Assembly: GCA_947088155.1 (NCBI GenBank)
Contig: CAMUFL010000002.1
Coordinates: 148,275-212,274 of the forward strand
DNA length: 64,000 bases
Direction of reading: 5' to 3'
Origin: an uncultured Gardnerella sp.
GTDB taxonomy: Bacteria > Actinomycetota > Actinomycetes > Actinomycetales > Bifidobacteriaceae
A program made the position numbers. Numbering within the stretch: position 1 is the stretch's first letter; every line of letters begins with the position of its first letter. This document shows, piece by piece, positions 31,301 to 43,300 of the stretch.

Positions 31301-34300
31301 CTCATGCAAGCATACCTTCTTAACTCTGGGGTTGAGCAAAATCAAATTATATCTATAAACTTTGAGTCGCTCGAGTTTCAAGATATGAGTTACAAAGACT
31401 TGTATAATTACGTTAAAAATAGGATTGAATCTAGCAGTATTGAATCCTCTGATAGTGAGTCTTCTAGTATTAAGACTCCTAAAAAAACGTATCTTTTCTT
31501 TGACGAGCTGCAGCGTATCGATCGTTGGGAAGATGCAATTAACTCGTTTCGCGTAGATTTTGATTGTGATATTTACATAACTGGCTCTAATGCATATCTG
31601 CTTTCTTCTGAGTATTCAACGTATTTGTCTGGGCGGTATGTGGAAGTGAAAATGTATCCGCTTTCGTTCAAAGAGTTCGCTGATTTTCAGGATTATTCCG
31701 TTGAAGAATATAAGTCTCCGCTCGGCGATCTGAAAAAAAGAGCAGTGAATGCTAATGGCGGCAGTGTAGAGCTTGATGACTTGTTTGCAGCTTATATGCG
31801 TTACGGCGGTATGCCTGCAATTTGCGATATTGCTTTAGAATCAGGTTTTAATCAGAGTAGCGCAATGACTTTGCTGGATGGGATTTATTCCACTGTAGTA
31901 GTTCGCGATATACTCGAGCGTGAGAAGCGCCGAGGTCAAAGACAGATTACAGACGCCGACCTTCTTAGAAAAATCATTATGTTTTTGGCAGATAATATTG
32001 GAAATAATACGTCTTTAAATTCTGTGTGTAATACGCTTTCTTCCGAAAATCTTCTTAATGCTGTGGATGGCAATTCGCGTGGATTGCGCGCGCGTGGCGC
32101 TAAACCTGCAACTCAAACCGTGTCCGCTTATGTTAGTGCGTTAAAAGAATCTTACATGTTTTATGATGTTAAGCGCTTTGATATTAAAGGAAAGGATTAT
32201 TTGCGCACTCTTGGCAAATATTACATTGTTGACATTGGGTTGCGTAATTATTTGCTCGGATTTAGAGACAGAGATAGAGGGCATGCGCTAGAGAACGTTG
32301 TTTTCTTTGAGCTTTTAAGGCGCGGATATGATGTTGCAGTTGGCAAAATAGATAATTTGGAAGTGGATTTTGTTGCTACTTCTGCTTGCGAAAAGCTTTA
32401 TATTCAAGTAACTGAAAGTATGATGGATGAGTCTGTGCGCGAGCGCGAGTTAAAGCCGCTTCGTAAGATTCAGAATAATTACGAGAAACTGGTTATTACT
32501 TTGAGTAAGGCTTTAGATGATGACTACGACGGCATTCGCGTTGAAAACATTGTTGATTGGTTGCTTAAGTAGCGTTGCTGATTGGTTTCTTTTTAATTAG
32601 GTGTTATGTAAGTAGGTATTAAAGTGCGTAAATCGTGCTACGCCGAAACGAGTGGCGTGATGTTTTTCTATAGTGCGTTTTTGCAAAAATGTCGGTATAG
32701 ATGAGTATTTTTTGTGCGCTATACCTTCATTTTGCGAAAATGTAGGTATAGGCGAATATATTTTGCGTGCTATTCTGCTATTTTTTAAAAATGTCGGTAT
32801 AGAATGCGACTTTCTGTAAACTATGTCGACATTTTGCCGTTTTTGTTGCTTTGTTGCGGATTTTGACGAGTAACAGCGAGTTTTGACTTAGGGAGTGAAG
32901 CAAGCGATGTTCGGGAATGTTGTTGCGATTGAGCGCGCGCTTGGCACGGGGATTATTATCTCTAGCAGCGTGCCGATTCCTGAGCGCACTGAGCAGCGGA
33001 TTCGCGCTTTTGTTGAAGAGTATGAATCGGTGCTTTCGCGCTTTCGTGCAGATTCGCTTGTTTCGCGCATGGCTCGTGCGGAGCATGGCGGCGATTTTGA
33101 GTTTCCATCGTGGGCTGGGGCGCTTTTTGCAATTTATGACGAGTTTTATGCTGCAACGCACGGAGCTTTCGATGCGTGCATTGGCGCGGATCTGCTTGCG
33201 CTTGGCTACGATAATTCCGTGAAATTTGTTCCAGAATTTACTGTTAGCGAGAGCGAGAATAGTGGCAGTGTCAGCGGCAGCTGGAGCAAATATCGCCGCG
33301 ATCTGCCAGTTACGTGGGCAGATATTTCGAGAGATGACGGCAGTGCAACGCTTCACACGAATCAGCCAGTGCAGCTTGATTTTGGTGCAGCTGGAAAGGG
33401 CTATTTTGTAGATCTTGTAGCGAAGATTATTAAAGAGGAGCTTGGTGGCGATTTTCCTGCGAATAGTGATTTGCCTGCGGATTTTGATTTTTTGGTAAAT
33501 GCCGGCGGCGATATGCGTGCTTGTTTTAGCGAAGAAAATAGCAGAATAAAAGTGGCTCTGGAAAATCCTTTTGATACGACGCAAGCGGTAGGTGTGGCAT
33601 CAATCTTAAGCGGAGCGCTGTGCGCTTCGTCTAGCGCAAGAAGGCGTTGGAAAGTAAAAGACGCAAATTGCCTTGCAGATAATGCTTTTGAATCTAATTT
33701 AATTGCAACTCACTTAATTAACGCTTTAGATGGCGTTCCTTCGCAAAAACTTTCTGCAAGCTGGGCTTATGTTCCTGCGAAAACTTGCGCTTTTCCAACT
33801 GCTTACGCCGACGCACTCGCAACTGCGTTGTTTGTATCGCAAGAAAGCGATTTGCAAAAAATCGTGCAAACTAAAAGCGCTGAGTTTGCTGTAATCTCGC
33901 CAAATCATGCGCTTCGTAAAACGGCCGCCTTCCCCGCTCACTTTTTTGCCGAATAATCACAGAAAAAAGATTGATAATTATCGTTATCAATATCATTTTT
34001 GCAATATTTGCGTGTTTTTTGCGCTTAACTATATCAATCTACTTGATATGTCGATATTATGTACCTGTGGGGCCCTTGATGGCAAGTTTTAGTTGGGAGT
34101 GCTCGATTGGGGTAGAGCACATTGAGAAGTAGAAGTGTAAGAATACGCGAGGAGATGTTATGCGCGCGTGTGTAAAAGTGCGCCGAATTGTTCGTGATTC
34201 GGCTGCACTGATGCTGGCTGTGTGCATGTTAGTGAGTTTCGTTATAAGCTCGTTTGCTATAACTATGCCAGCTTTCGCAACAGATGCAGATCGCTCTTAT

Positions 34301-40300: not shown

Positions 40301-43300
40301 CACTACGATTTCTTCGATTGTGCAGCAGCGTCGAAACGAAATTGGCTTGCGTAAAGCTTTGGGTGCAAGTGCCAAGAGTATTGGCATGGAATTTACTGCG
40401 GAAGCTGGATTGTACGGTTTCGTTGGCGGCATTGCTGGTACTGCAGTAGGGTATGTGTTTGCTCGTTTGCTTGCAGCAATGGTGTTTGCTAGAGATTTGG
40501 GCGTGAATTGGTGGCTTGTTGCGTTCTCGGTGGCGTTTAGCATTATTGCATCTTGCGTTGCTGCGTTGCCGCCTGTTTTGCGCGCTTCAAAGATCGATCC
40601 TGCGATTGTGCTTCGAGAAGAATAATTTTAAGCGTAAATTTAGAGATTGTTTAAGATTTGAGTTAAGGATTTAATATGACAGAGAATGTAGAAAATAAGT
40701 TGGAAGGCGCGGAGTCTAAACCAAAAATGCTGTTGACTTTGGATCATATTTCCAAGATTTACGGATCTCTTCGCGCGGTTGACGATTTGTCGCTTACTGT
40801 GCCAGAAGGCGAGTGGCTTTCTATTGTTGGCTCCAGTGGTTCTGGCAAAACAACGTTAATGAACATTATTGGCTGCATGGATTCGCCATCTAAAGGTTCC
40901 GTGTCTTTGCAAGGTCGCAAACTTGAGGATTTGAACGCAGGTCAGCTTGCTGACGTTCGTAAAAACGTAATCGGTTTAGTTTTTCAAAAGTTTTATCTTG
41001 TGCCGCATTTAACAGCTGTTGAAAACGTTATGGTTGCGCAATACTATCATTCTGTTGTTGACGAAGCTCAAGCGATGGATGCTTTGGATCGAGTTGGTTT
41101 GAAGGATCGCGCTCACCATTTGCCAAGCCAGCTTTCTGGCGGTGAGCAGCAGCGTGTTTGCGTTGCTCGTGCGCTTATTAACTGCCCTAAGTTGCTTCTT
41201 GCGGATGAGCCGACTGGCAATTTGGATGAAAAAAATGAGCAGATTGTGCTTGACTTATTTAAGCAGCTGCATGATCAAGGCACGACGATTATTGTTGTAA
41301 CTCACGATTCTCTGGTTGCTCAATGCGCGGATCGCGAAATTATGCTTAATCATGGTGTGCTTGTTGGTGAGCGTTGGAATAATGAGGATGCTCGCAAAGC
41401 GTACGAGGCGATTGGCGGCAAGCCTGCGTTTACGAGTGCTCATGTTGATGAAAGCGTTGCGGAAGCTTTGCAAGATCATGATCCTACTAAGTCGCCTAAA
41501 TTAGCGAATTTAGATGATTAGTTTTTAGATGATTAGTTGCGTATAGTTTTTAATTTAAGATTTAAAGGCGATGATTTTATGGTTTTGGATAATATGTTTC
41601 ACGATGTTTCACGTTGCAATAATTTGCGTGATGATCTGAAATCTAAAAAAGTTGCAAAAACCGTTGCTACGCTTGCGATTGTAGCTGCGTCGTCCGCTAT
41701 GTTTTCTGCTTGTGGTGAGCCGAGTGCTGTGCCGATGAACGATGAGTTTGCTGGTAATTCCGGTCAGAGCGCGGATGATGGTGGTAATCCTTCTGGAAAG
41801 TACGATGCTGGCGCTCAGCAATCTAAGTCTTCTGCGCAAATTGAGGATTCTGGAGATTCGCAAGATTCTAAAAACCAGCAGAATCAGCCTAAAACAGACA
41901 CCGGCAATTATAAAGATGGCGACTACAAAATCAAAGCTACATATGGTCCTGTTGCAGAAGATAGTATTGAAGTAAATTTAAGCGTTGCAAATGGAAATGT
42001 TAGCGATGTGCAAATAACATCTCATCCGTTTACGCCGATTTCCAAGGGCCATATGGATGCATTCTCAAAGGCTATCCCTGGAAAAATCGTTGGAAAGCCG
42101 CTAAAAGATTTGCATATTTCGGTTGTTGCTGGAGCAAGTTGGACTAGTGATGCCTTCAACAAAGCGCTTGACGTTGCTCGTCAAGAGGCCTCAATCGCAT
42201 CCGCGCAATAATCTTAACCACCTTAATCTATTAATGTAATCGTGATTATAATAACCGTGATTATATTGTTGAATATTTGCGCGTAATTAATAGGGGCTAA
42301 TACTGCAGTTGTTTACAATACTAACCCCTATTTTTGTTTGTTTTTCTTATGAAATTATTGCTTATTCATTTTTATGCGCTTTAATTTTGCTATGACTCCA
42401 GCAAGTCCAAACGTTAAAATTGCAGAAAAAGCAATCAGTAATATTTCGTTTCCTGTTTTTGGAAGTTGCTTATTCTCGTTTTTGCGTTTTTCTATGATTT
42501 TATTATTTGGATTTTCTTTTGGTAGTGGCGTAGTGTTTGGTGTTTTTTCTGGAGTCGGCTTATGCTTTGGCCACGGTGTTGGTTCTGGAACAGGTGTCGG
42601 TTCTGGATCTGGTGTCGGCTCCGGATCAGGTGTCGGCTCCGGATCTGGCGTTGGCTCCGGATCAGGCGTTGGCTCCGGTGTTGGTGGAGTCGGTGGAGTT
42701 GGTGGATCATATTCTACGGTGAGAGAAATACCATTAGCGCCTGCTGCTACGTCAGAGTTTTTCCCTTCGCTTGTTTGTGAGCCATTCCAAGTAAAGTCAA
42801 ATAATTTCGTTGTTCCATTAAATGTTGCAGCTGCGTGGAAGTAGCCTGTCACGGTTCCAACAATTGTAGCTTTTCCGGAGAAATCTTGATTTATCTTTAT
42901 TCCCGGAATAGTGATTTTCATTGCGTCGCCAAGATTTGTTTGTACTGCTGTCTGCAATGCTGCATACGTTCCAATATCAGATTTCAAATTAATAGTAACT
43001 GTAACAGTATTGTCTTCAGTTTTCACATCCTGTATAGCAAAAGTATCTGCGAATCCATCGAGCGTAAGTGTATCTTTTGTGATATTATCAGGCAGCGTTA
43101 AACTGTCTGGAATTGTAAATGTTGCCTTGAACGAAGATGTTATACCGTCGAGAGTAATTTTGTCATAATCTGTCGCTTTTACTTTGTCAAATTTCTTTTC
43201 TATCGCCTTCATTTGGTCTTTTACTACTGAAGCTGTGATTGTGCCAGTGAAATCAATAGTTTGTCCTGGTGTAACTTTGTATGCTGTAGTTGCTGTGTTA

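Follow-up and report, generated by a model that had tools for sequence, protein, structure and literature searches.

A probable Bfe/Sif–Fet-type iron-uptake locus in Gardnerella with an FMN-binding lipoprotein and a leaderless ApbE neighbor

We analyzed 64,000 nucleotides of contig CAMUFL010000002.1 from an uncultured Gardnerella sp. (the window, a 64-kb stretch in which all coordinates below are counted), centering on a candidate FTR1/P19-type iron-acquisition cluster. Eight plus-strand open reading frames (ORFs), separated by short gaps, occupy 32895–42211, and the coordinates given for them in the first-pass annotation held. A Pfam profile search run on each ORF agreed with every family call made there: an ApbE-family flavin transferase, an FTR1 permease, a P19-like lipoprotein, a polytopic DUF2318 protein, two FtsX-type permeases, an ATP-binding cassette (ABC) ATPase, and a lipoprotein with a flavin mononucleotide (FMN)-binding domain. 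At the family level, the sequences bear out the reading of these genes as an iron-acquisition system of the P19/FTR1 type, with its FMN-binding lipoprotein and a linked ApbE gene. The G+C content (0.37–0.47) is consistent with Gardnerella, and the P19 protein shares 97% identity with its counterpart in a G. vaginalis strain.

The Iron Permease, Its Partner Proteins, and the ABC Module

The gene at 34160–35881 (+) encodes an FTR1/FetM-type iron permease orthologous to BfeU (Pfam FTR1, expectation value E 1.5e-35). The Pfam match is limited to residues 313–515, the C-terminal permease, which carries the two REXXE motifs by which the family is recognized: REGLE at residue 319 (35114–35128) and REGAE at residue 437 (35468–35482). 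Both had been called in the first pass, as had the long ectodomain. The N terminus consists of a signal or anchor segment followed by a region of ~270 residues before the first REGxE helix, and this ectodomain is kept in all 16 orthologs compared. In an AlphaFold2 model whose transmembrane part came out poor, residues 50–290 are all-helical, with a predicted local distance difference test (pLDDT) score of about 75–92. Compared with solved structures, the modeled ectodomain gave no significant match, only generic helical bundles. Neither this ectodomain nor the N-terminal membrane part of the DUF2318 protein matched a Pfam family, even at E 10.

Downstream lies the gene for a P19/Tp34/FetP-family iron-binding lipoprotein, the BfeO ortholog (36004–36636, +; Pfam Iron_transport, PF10634, E 6e-57). 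Its placement inside the P19/Tp34 family is clear from matches to solved structures in the PDB, which range overall from E 1e-46 to 1e-26 and include Tp34 (E 1e-45), FetP (8e-40), Campylobacter jejuni P19 (4e-31), and FtrA (8e-30). Read from the translation, the lipobox is LTGC, with Cys23 as the lipidated residue.

The next gene (36758–38029, +) encodes a polytopic membrane protein with about 9–10 hydrophobic segments, orthologous to SifA/FetA. Residues 322–421 match FtrD-like (PF10080, formerly DUF2318; E 2e-31); Pfam found no YHS domain in the protein. Five cysteines at 37832–37939 form the module CENC-X13-CRKC-X14-C, which corrects the CxxC-X15-CxxC spacing first reported and is an exact match to the CxxC-x13-CxxC-x(14,15)-C pattern of Cj1660 (PMC6083913).

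Two FtsX/MacB-type ABC permeases and one ATPase follow, in the same order as in the Fet and Bfe-Sif clusters. Permease 1, the SifB/FetB ortholog (38042–39376, +; FtsX E 3e-14, MacB_PCD E 8.5e-13), has a large extracytoplasmic MacB_PCD domain and weak matches to the LolC/E and MacB families. Permease 2, the SifC/FetC ortholog (39342–40625, +; FtsX E 1.2e-17), is 19% identical to permease 1 and probably starts at ATG 39384. The ATPase (40676–41521, +; ABC_tran E 6.5e-35), orthologous to SifD/FetD, is of the MacB/LolD/FtsE type, its best NCBIfam matches being the MacB, FtsE, and LolD ATPases. None of the eight ORFs has a Pfam match to a substrate-binding-protein family.

Elsewhere in the window we found no paralogs of the cluster genes, except unrelated ABC ATPases. 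Two further MacB/LolD-like ABC ATPase genes lie at 7043–7690 and 52669–53286, and their products are 37–42% identical to the cluster ATPase.

For comparison, we fetched 80 loci from Gardnerella, Bifidobacterium, Scardovia, Alloscardovia, Pseudoscardovia, and Bombiscardovia. The seven-gene order from FTR1 to the FMN-binding gene is kept in nearly all of these Bifidobacteriaceae loci, and the flanking genes vary. The cluster was also present on contigs labeled Parabacteroides merdae, Acidaminococcaceae, Anaerovoracaceae, Dysosmobacter, and Senegalimassilia (L040, L048, L050, L051, and L053 among our loci): four of them have all seven genes, the truncated L048 has the first four, and their P19 proteins are 63–73% identical to that of the window. 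They appear to be Bifidobacterium contigs that were mis-binned into metagenome-assembled genomes of other taxa.

An FMN-Binding Lipoprotein and an ApbE Homolog Without a Leader

The seventh gene of the conserved order (41537/41579–42211, +) encodes the SifE ortholog, a lipoprotein that falls inside FMN_bind (PF04205) with 24.3–24.4 bits against a gathering cutoff of 22 (E 5e-5). Most of its orthologs carry a precomputed PF04205 match and the NCBI name "FMN-binding protein." The signal is a Sec-type lipoprotein signal, free of twin arginines in Gardnerella, with the lipobox FSAC ending at Cys45; a low-complexity linker then leads to the FMN_bind domain at residues 105–205. This layout recurs across orthologs: a lipoprotein signal, a PMNDE[YF]AGNSGE stretch, a Ser/Gln-rich linker, and a domain of ~100 residues ending in an invariant AGASWT[ST].

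The acidic stretch C-G-E-P-x-A-x-P-M-[ND]-D-E-[YF]-A-G-N-S-G-E, which follows directly on the lipidated cysteine (residues 45–62; 41711–41764), is strongly conserved: it is present in nearly all Bifidobacteriaceae orthologs and precedes the variable linker. No family match was found for it; it might be a docking or metal-binding peptide.

Single-sequence searches of the lipoprotein and of ApbE against solved structures gave nothing useful, and profiles were required for both. A profile of the lipoprotein family aligned Ser187 (in GAS) on the Thr of SGAT in 8p2a (E 0.033), a crystallized, covalently flavinylated domain (PMC10339131). In the AlphaFold2 model, residues 105–205 score above 85 in pLDDT, and the top Foldseek matches include 8p2a, 8p2b, and NqrC, all with E above 0.001.

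The flavinylation-like GAS/TS site of the first-pass annotation reads VAGASWTS, with Ser187 as candidate acceptor (42125–42139), and VAGAS is invariant in about 75 orthologs. The published flavinylation motif is D-x-x-[S/T]-G-A-[S/T], in which loss of the Asp is tolerated and Thr is preferred over Ser as acceptor (PMC12052999). Gardnerella has S-V-V-A-G-A-S at this site and most Bifidobacterium D-K-V-A-G-A-S. The G, the A, and a hydroxyl acceptor are retained, with Ala at −3 and Ser as the acceptor making the site a variant of the motif. No flavinylation-type motif was found in the other cluster proteins. In our reading the lipoprotein would become a flavoprotein through FMN on the candidate Ser187. 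A DKSGAT in the downstream LPXTG protein, a perfect flavinylation-type heptad, was set aside as a site; lying outside any FMN_bind domain, it is probably a chance occurrence.

The enzyme that would attach the flavin has a plausible encoder at the upstream end of the cluster. The gene at 32907–33956 (+) encodes an ApbE-family flavin adenine dinucleotide (FAD):protein FMN transferase homolog (Pfam ApbE, PF02424, E 2e-27); its longest ORF starts at GTG 32895 and its database entry at ATG 32907. A 349-aa protein on record is 100% identical, and Gardnerella orthologs that are 80–87% identical are named "FAD:protein FMN transferase" by NCBI. A first whole-database homolog search with this protein returned Gardnerella orthologs only; a profile of 16 orthologs matches solved ApbE structures (E 2e-20). 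DFGAxGKG, AGGD, Ser245, His273, and Asp306/Thr310 align with conserved ApbE motifs, and the last of these residues—Ser245, His273, and Asp306/Thr310, on the TSG, HH, and DxxxT motifs—are invariant. With residue roles assigned as in PMC12052999, the catalytic residues are retained.

What the protein lacks is an export signal. Its first β-strand (ALGTGII) begins at residue 13 or so, and we found no signal peptide, lipobox, or hydrophobic segment; for this reason it looks cytoplasmic, and a role as an extracytoplasmic flavin transferase is not supported. The absence is not peculiar to this gene. Signal peptide and hydrophobic segment are likewise missing from 37 ApbE orthologs of the fetched loci and from all 149 nearest 50%-identity cluster representatives, which an exhaustive HMMER search recovered with E values down to 1e-19. 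We considered whether a frameshift or a wrongly placed start codon had created the leaderless form and rejected this, the whole clade being leaderless. Nor did we find an upstream ORF able to supply a leader: a 20-codon hydrophobic ORF at 32804–32866 is in another frame, inside a repeat array, with a stop in between. No second ApbE was found in the 64-kb window.

Relatives of this ApbE outside the Bifidobacteriaceae place the enzyme in similar company. We sampled nine of their genomic contexts. In seven, the adjoining gene encodes a 127–172-residue protein with a signal peptide, lipobox, or N-in membrane anchor and an FMN_bind-like domain ending in (V/L)-[ASN]-G-[AS]-S. Six contexts contain a fusion of an NqrB/RnfD-like protein with NAD_binding_1, the "NQR/RNF-like" system of Meheust et al.; aldo-keto reductases stand alongside, upstream, in two. 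The small exported neighbors (loci L081–L092) have no annotation in the Pfam precomputation. This co-occurrence of a leaderless clade with a variant Ser acceptor in several architectures supports an enzyme–substrate relation, and it sharpens the compartment problem.

A leaderless ApbE next to an exported FMN-binding partner is the one odd, unexplained point of the locus. Flavinylation before export, non-classical export of the ApbE, and a second ApbE elsewhere are possible ways out. Recognition by ApbE needs no more than a seven-residue tag (PMC12052999), and an unfolded precursor could therefore in principle be modified. Export of an already flavinylated lipoprotein by the Tat pathway does not serve as a general explanation and was rejected: twin arginines occur in few orthologs only and in none from Gardnerella. 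A bolder proposal is that a large leaderless ApbE clade, spanning Gardnerella and the NQR/RNF-like systems, modifies exported FMN-binding proteins with an [AS]-G-[AS]-Ser acceptor; we regard it as improbable. Were it true, the routes would be cytoplasmic flavinylation before Sec/lipoprotein export or an unrecognized export of the enzyme, and in Bifidobacteriaceae the main high-affinity iron importer would owe the maturation of its redox lipoprotein to this step. Cytoplasmic flavinylation, if it occurs, would also make an FAD exporter unnecessary.

Linkage, Candidate Promoter Region, and Surroundings

How closely the ApbE gene keeps to the cluster could be classed in the 64 loci that extend 6 kb or more upstream. 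An ApbE homolog lies within about 8 kb in 38 of them, immediately adjacent in 21. Adjacent genes on the same strand account for 8 loci and same-strand genes 1.6–6.6 kb off for 5, all of them Gardnerella; in the other Bifidobacteriaceae the gene is divergent, adjacent in 13 loci and 1.4–7.7 kb off in 12 (25 loci together). Linkage at this frequency is far above chance for one gene in a 1.4–1.7-Mb genome, which argues for a functional tie. No ApbE lies within about 8 kb in the remaining 26 loci.

These figures bear on a different assignment, under which the neighboring ApbE works in the cytoplasm only—on another target, as an FAD pyrophosphatase, or in flavin trafficking—and the lipoprotein is flavinylated by a secreted ApbE encoded elsewhere or binds its flavin noncovalently. 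The leaderless state of the whole clade fits this, as do the 26 loci without a nearby ApbE, the non-canonical acceptor motif, and the control of ApbE specificity by localization in Klebsiella (PMC12052999). Against it stand the retention of the linkage across Gardnerella, Bifidobacterium, Scardovia, Alloscardovia, and Pseudoscardovia in two orientations, and the exported FMN_bind-like protein with the same variant site that adjoins members of the ApbE clade in seven of nine unrelated contexts. Among the cluster proteins only the lipoprotein carries a flavinylation-type motif, the window holds no second ApbE, and the two chelators that impair a Bifidobacterium breve apbE mutant are those that impair sif mutants (PMC5449479). 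Taken together, we judge the cytoplasm-only assignment unlikely and retain the linked ApbE as the candidate enzyme for Ser187.

Linkage is not the same as cotranscription. The first-pass annotation treated the eight genes as one operon; the variable position of ApbE (1.6–6.6 kb off in five Gardnerella loci, divergent in 25 loci) and a palindrome-bearing candidate promoter region in front of FTR1 speak otherwise. This region is the 203-bp, same-strand spacer between ApbE and FTR1 (33957–34159, +), a conserved candidate promoter/operator region identified by aligning 16 Gardnerella upstream regions. It contains a perfect palindrome, ATTGATAA-N6-TTATCAAT (33970–33991), whose half-sites resemble Fur half-sites; a second palindrome, ATATCAA-TCTAC-TTGATAT (34031–34049); and a −10-like TATTAT (34055–34060). 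The block is conserved in 16 of 16 aligned Gardnerella sequences, whether ApbE or other sequence lies upstream, from which we infer a promoter of its own for FTR1. That promoter is probably iron-regulated, and the spacer palindromes are a candidate Fur-type operator; Gardnerella encodes a Fur-family regulator (PMC2928729). ApbE is then probably a linked but separately transcribed accessory gene outside the operon.

The first palindrome is not significantly enriched in the window—three matches at no more than three mismatches, a count reached by 8 of 100 shuffles—and therefore no regulon can be inferred from it. A similar palindrome, ATTGATTAATTGATTAATCAAT, lies at 30589–30610, just before an 85-codon ORF (30621–30878) without a Pfam family.

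Within the cluster, the FTR1–P19 spacer (35882–36003) is an A-rich low-complexity tract, and the P19–DUF2318 spacer (36637–36757) is AT-rich, with TAGTAAT-like and TAATTATT repeats; no terminator was predicted in either. Downstream of the last gene, a single terminator had been proposed at 42290–42352. An imperfect hairpin at ~42289–42333 and a T-run extending to 42346 are indeed present (42289–42346, +; −10.4 kcal/mol), and the element would be common to the convergent downstream gene, but its fold is no better than that of shuffled sequence (z-score −0.01) and a consensus terminator scan did not call it. As a terminator it is plausible.

Just upstream of ApbE, three tandem 51-bp repeats span 32668–32837, each with the 15-mer AAAATGT(C/A)GGTATAG, together with two inverted copies. 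All five matches of the 15-mer in the window lie within this interval, with 0.12 expected by chance in 64 kb. Upstream of the ApbE region, 13 Gardnerella loci carry one to five copies of the motif; no other genus has it. Relative to L001, the closest related locus (its ApbE at 6892–7950), ApbE is 82% identical and the remaining cluster genes 88–99%; in L001 and several other loci, about 1.5 kb separates the repeat array from ApbE. The divergence of ApbE and this 1.5-kb interval together suggest recombination or rapid divergence at the cluster edge.

Flanking the cluster are genes for a BspA-like leucine-rich-repeat surface protein, an AAA_14/DUF4143 ATPase, and a convergently encoded LPXTG surface protein, none of them iron-related. 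The last of these is a 1125-aa LPXTG-anchored protein (42355–45732, −) with Listeria-Bacteroides repeats and a proline-rich stalk.

A Proposed Mechanism and Its Relation to Known Systems

We consider it likely that the locus is the Gardnerella ortholog of the high-affinity iron-uptake system bfeUO/sifABCDE—the Gram-positive, FMN-binding variant of FetMP-FetABCDEF—and that it works by the following mechanism, whose steps are drawn from homology and from genetics in other species. The P19-like lipoprotein, tethered at the outer face of the membrane, would capture iron, and FTR1/FetM would move it across the membrane via the two REGxE helices, its helical ectodomain probably docking P19. The DUF2318 protein, with its five extracytoplasmic cysteines, and the FMN-binding lipoprotein would supply the redox step needed for iron transfer, replacing the FetE/F thioredoxins; this step is most likely the reduction of Fe(III) to Fe(II). 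The heterodimeric MacB-type FtsX permeases and their ATPase would import no substrate; ATP hydrolysis would instead drive work at the outer face that supports capture, permeation, and redox. The linked ApbE would attach FMN to Ser187 of the VAGAS site, and transcription most likely starts at the conserved, probably iron-regulated promoter just upstream of FTR1.

Several observations weigh against this scheme. The FMN_bind score of the lipoprotein is barely over threshold and its structural matches are weak; its acceptor motif is non-canonical, with Ala at −3, a Ser acceptor, and no Asp at −6 in Gardnerella. The ApbE homolog lacks the leader expected of the extracytoplasmic type, and characterized ApbEs modify only targets in their own compartment, with specificity set by localization in Klebsiella (PMC12052999). 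An NqrB/RnfD-like fusion, which could act as transmembrane electron donor, was found neither in the window nor within 10 kb of the cluster in the 80 loci. The direction of the redox step is uncertain because FetE/F of C. jejuni are oxidase-like. For Gardnerella the evidence consists of sequence and models, the phenotypes coming from B. breve and C. jejuni.

The redox step is also where the proposed mechanism has its strongest competitor, which departs from it in that step only. The lipoprotein could be a redox partner of the DUF2318 CxxC pairs, oxidizing or re-reducing them, rather than a ferric reductase, with iron redox taking place at P19/FTR1 or not at all. FetE resembles thiol-disulfide oxidases, and extracts of a fetEF deletion reduce 5,5′-dithiobis-(2-nitrobenzoic acid) (DTNB) faster than those of the wild type (PMC10783030); the FMN-binding gene sits exactly where thioredoxin genes sit (PMC6083913), and the CxxC-X13-CxxC-X14-C module is conserved. 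On the other side, Fe(III) chelates are readily reduced by flavins, and ferric reduction has been proposed in Liu 2018 and Meheust 2021. We hold the CxxC-partner role to be a real possibility, clearly less probable than the scheme with ferric reduction.

The closest characterized system is bfeUO/sifABCDE of B. breve UCC2003 (Bbr_0221–0227), which Lanigan et al. (2017) studied with transposon and insertion mutants, microarrays, reverse-transcription PCR, and primer extension (PMC5449479). It comes from the same bacterial family and matches the seven window genes in content and order: FTR1 with a long N-terminal region, a P19/Tp34-like protein, a multi-transmembrane protein, an FtsX pair, an ATPase, and a membrane-associated FMN-binding protein. 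Sensitivity to iron chelators is seen in mutants of bfeU, bfeO, and each of sifA–E, and SifE was noted as a possible FMN-binding ferric reductase (PMC5449479). The first-pass statement that this architecture had not been characterized in an actinobacterium consequently fails for seven of the eight genes, the FMN-binding variant having also been described before (PMC6083913, PMC8238504). The B. breve genome is not among the fetched loci; the orthology is based on other Bifidobacterium species, whose orthologs are 41–82% identical per gene.

Differences lie in regulation and in ApbE. In B. breve the cluster forms two transcription units with two mapped promoters, both induced by dipyridyl (PMC5449479), and a terminator and the second promoter lie between bfeO and sifA; the corresponding spacer of the window is AT-rich, with no predicted terminator. 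The B. breve operator motif, AAAATCAAGACTGTTGTT, differs from the window palindrome. The B. breve apbE gene (Bbr_1825) is unlinked to its cluster, whereas the window ApbE lies 203 bp upstream on the same strand. The B. breve apbE::Tn5 mutant is impaired on two ferrous chelators only and grows normally on a ferric chelator, the same pattern as sif mutants but milder, which Lanigan et al. took as a defect in iron–sulfur (Fe-S) repair (PMC5449479). The phenotype fits ApbE maturing SifE at least as well as Fe-S repair.

For B. breve, sifABCDE was first proposed to be an independent ABC importer of ferrous iron or a siderophore, apart from FTR1/P19. In keeping with this, sif mutants are sensitive to ferrous chelators only and bfe mutants to a ferric chelator as well, and the bfe and sif groups are separate transcription units (PMC5449479). 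Yet the six core genes stand together in the same order in 33 species (PMC6083913) and in nearly all 80 loci here, and the fetA–D phenotypes of C. jejuni resemble that of fetP (PMC10783030). The permeases are moreover of the FtsX/MacB type with a MacB_PCD ectodomain, and the eight ORFs include no substrate-binding-protein family in Pfam. To our knowledge, the characterized members of this permease family (MacB, LolCDE, FtsEX) are not importers, which also counts against an independent importer. We regard that assignment as very unlikely and keep to a single system in which the ABC module serves FTR1/P19.

Among Gram-negative bacteria the counterpart is FetMP-FetABCDEF (cFtr1-P19) of Campylobacter and E. 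coli, with which the window shares the first six genes and their order, the REGxE motifs, the P19 fold family, the DUF2318 CxxC-X13-CxxC-X14/15-C module, two non-identical FtsX permeases, and one ATPase. Liu et al. (2018) found the C. jejuni cj1658–cj1665 cluster conserved across several phyla (33 species), the six core genes never separated or reordered, with an FMN-binding protein in Actinobacteria, Firmicutes, Spirochaetes, and Synergistetes where Proteobacteria have thioredoxins (PMC6083913). The window conforms: genes seven and eight of the Fet cluster encode periplasmic thioredoxins, and a single FMN-binding lipoprotein stands in their place. The window proteins differ from those of Campylobacter and E. 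coli in having lipid anchors on a Gram-positive surface, where no outer membrane has to be crossed. Under iron limitation, C. jejuni requires each of the four genes fetA, fetB, fetC, and fetD; its redox proteins FetE/F are redundant and more oxidase- than reductase-like (Richardson-Sanchez et al. 2023, PMC10783030).

A link between flavinylation and iron assimilation was proposed by Meheust et al. (2021) from 260 P19 clusters with an FMN_bind gene, in a survey that selected for predicted extracytosolic components (PMC8238504). In the passages of that work considered here we found no mention of a leaderless ApbE by P19 clusters or of the AGAS variant acceptor, and the supplementary tables examined hold no Gardnerella, Bifidobacterium, or PF10634 rows. 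The nearest relatives of the window ApbE outside Bifidobacteriaceae belong to the two-subunit NQR/RNF-like systems of Actinobacteria and the candidate phyla radiation (Meheust 2021; Huang et al. 2024, PMC10979944). There the ApbE gene lies between a small exported NqrC/RnfG-like FMN_bind protein ([AS]G[AS]S) and the NqrB/RnfD-like + NAD_binding_1 fusion; the window lipoprotein domain has the same type of site, and its partners are iron-transport proteins.

Brucella/Bordetella FtrABCD and E. coli/Bacillus EfeUOB are more distant. Both share the FTR1-family permease with REXXE motifs, and FtrABCD also the P19-family FtrA (PDB 8vv5 and 7r4u, matched by the window P19 at E 1e-29 to 1e-26). None of the eight ORFs has a Pfam match to a cupredoxin (FtrB), a polyferredoxin/4Fe-4S protein (FtrD proper), EfeO/M75, or a DyP peroxidase (EfeB). 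The locus is not of the Brucella FtrABCD type: PF10080 is named "FtrD-like," and here it marks the DUF2318 protein of a Fet-type cluster. ABC (FtsX-type) components are not known in Brucella FtrABCD, contrary to the first-pass annotation, or in EfeUOB-type systems.

Systems of this kind have been published several times, and the Gardnerella locus is an uncharacterized member with a same-strand ApbE neighbor. The general biology is known, and specialists gain little from it apart from the mismatch between a leaderless ApbE clade and its exported partners, which, if real, bears on how and where Gram-positive bacteria mature extracytoplasmic flavoproteins. Ser187, the DUF2318 cysteines, and the candidate operator palindromes give concrete targets. 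Gardnerella is central to bacterial vaginosis, and iron acquisition contributes to its fitness. In a 2010 listing, FTR1 and Tpd/P19 of Gardnerella were counted as two transporters, each on its own (PMC2928729); one seven-gene system of the Fet/Bfe-Sif type with a linked ApbE is the more accurate annotation.

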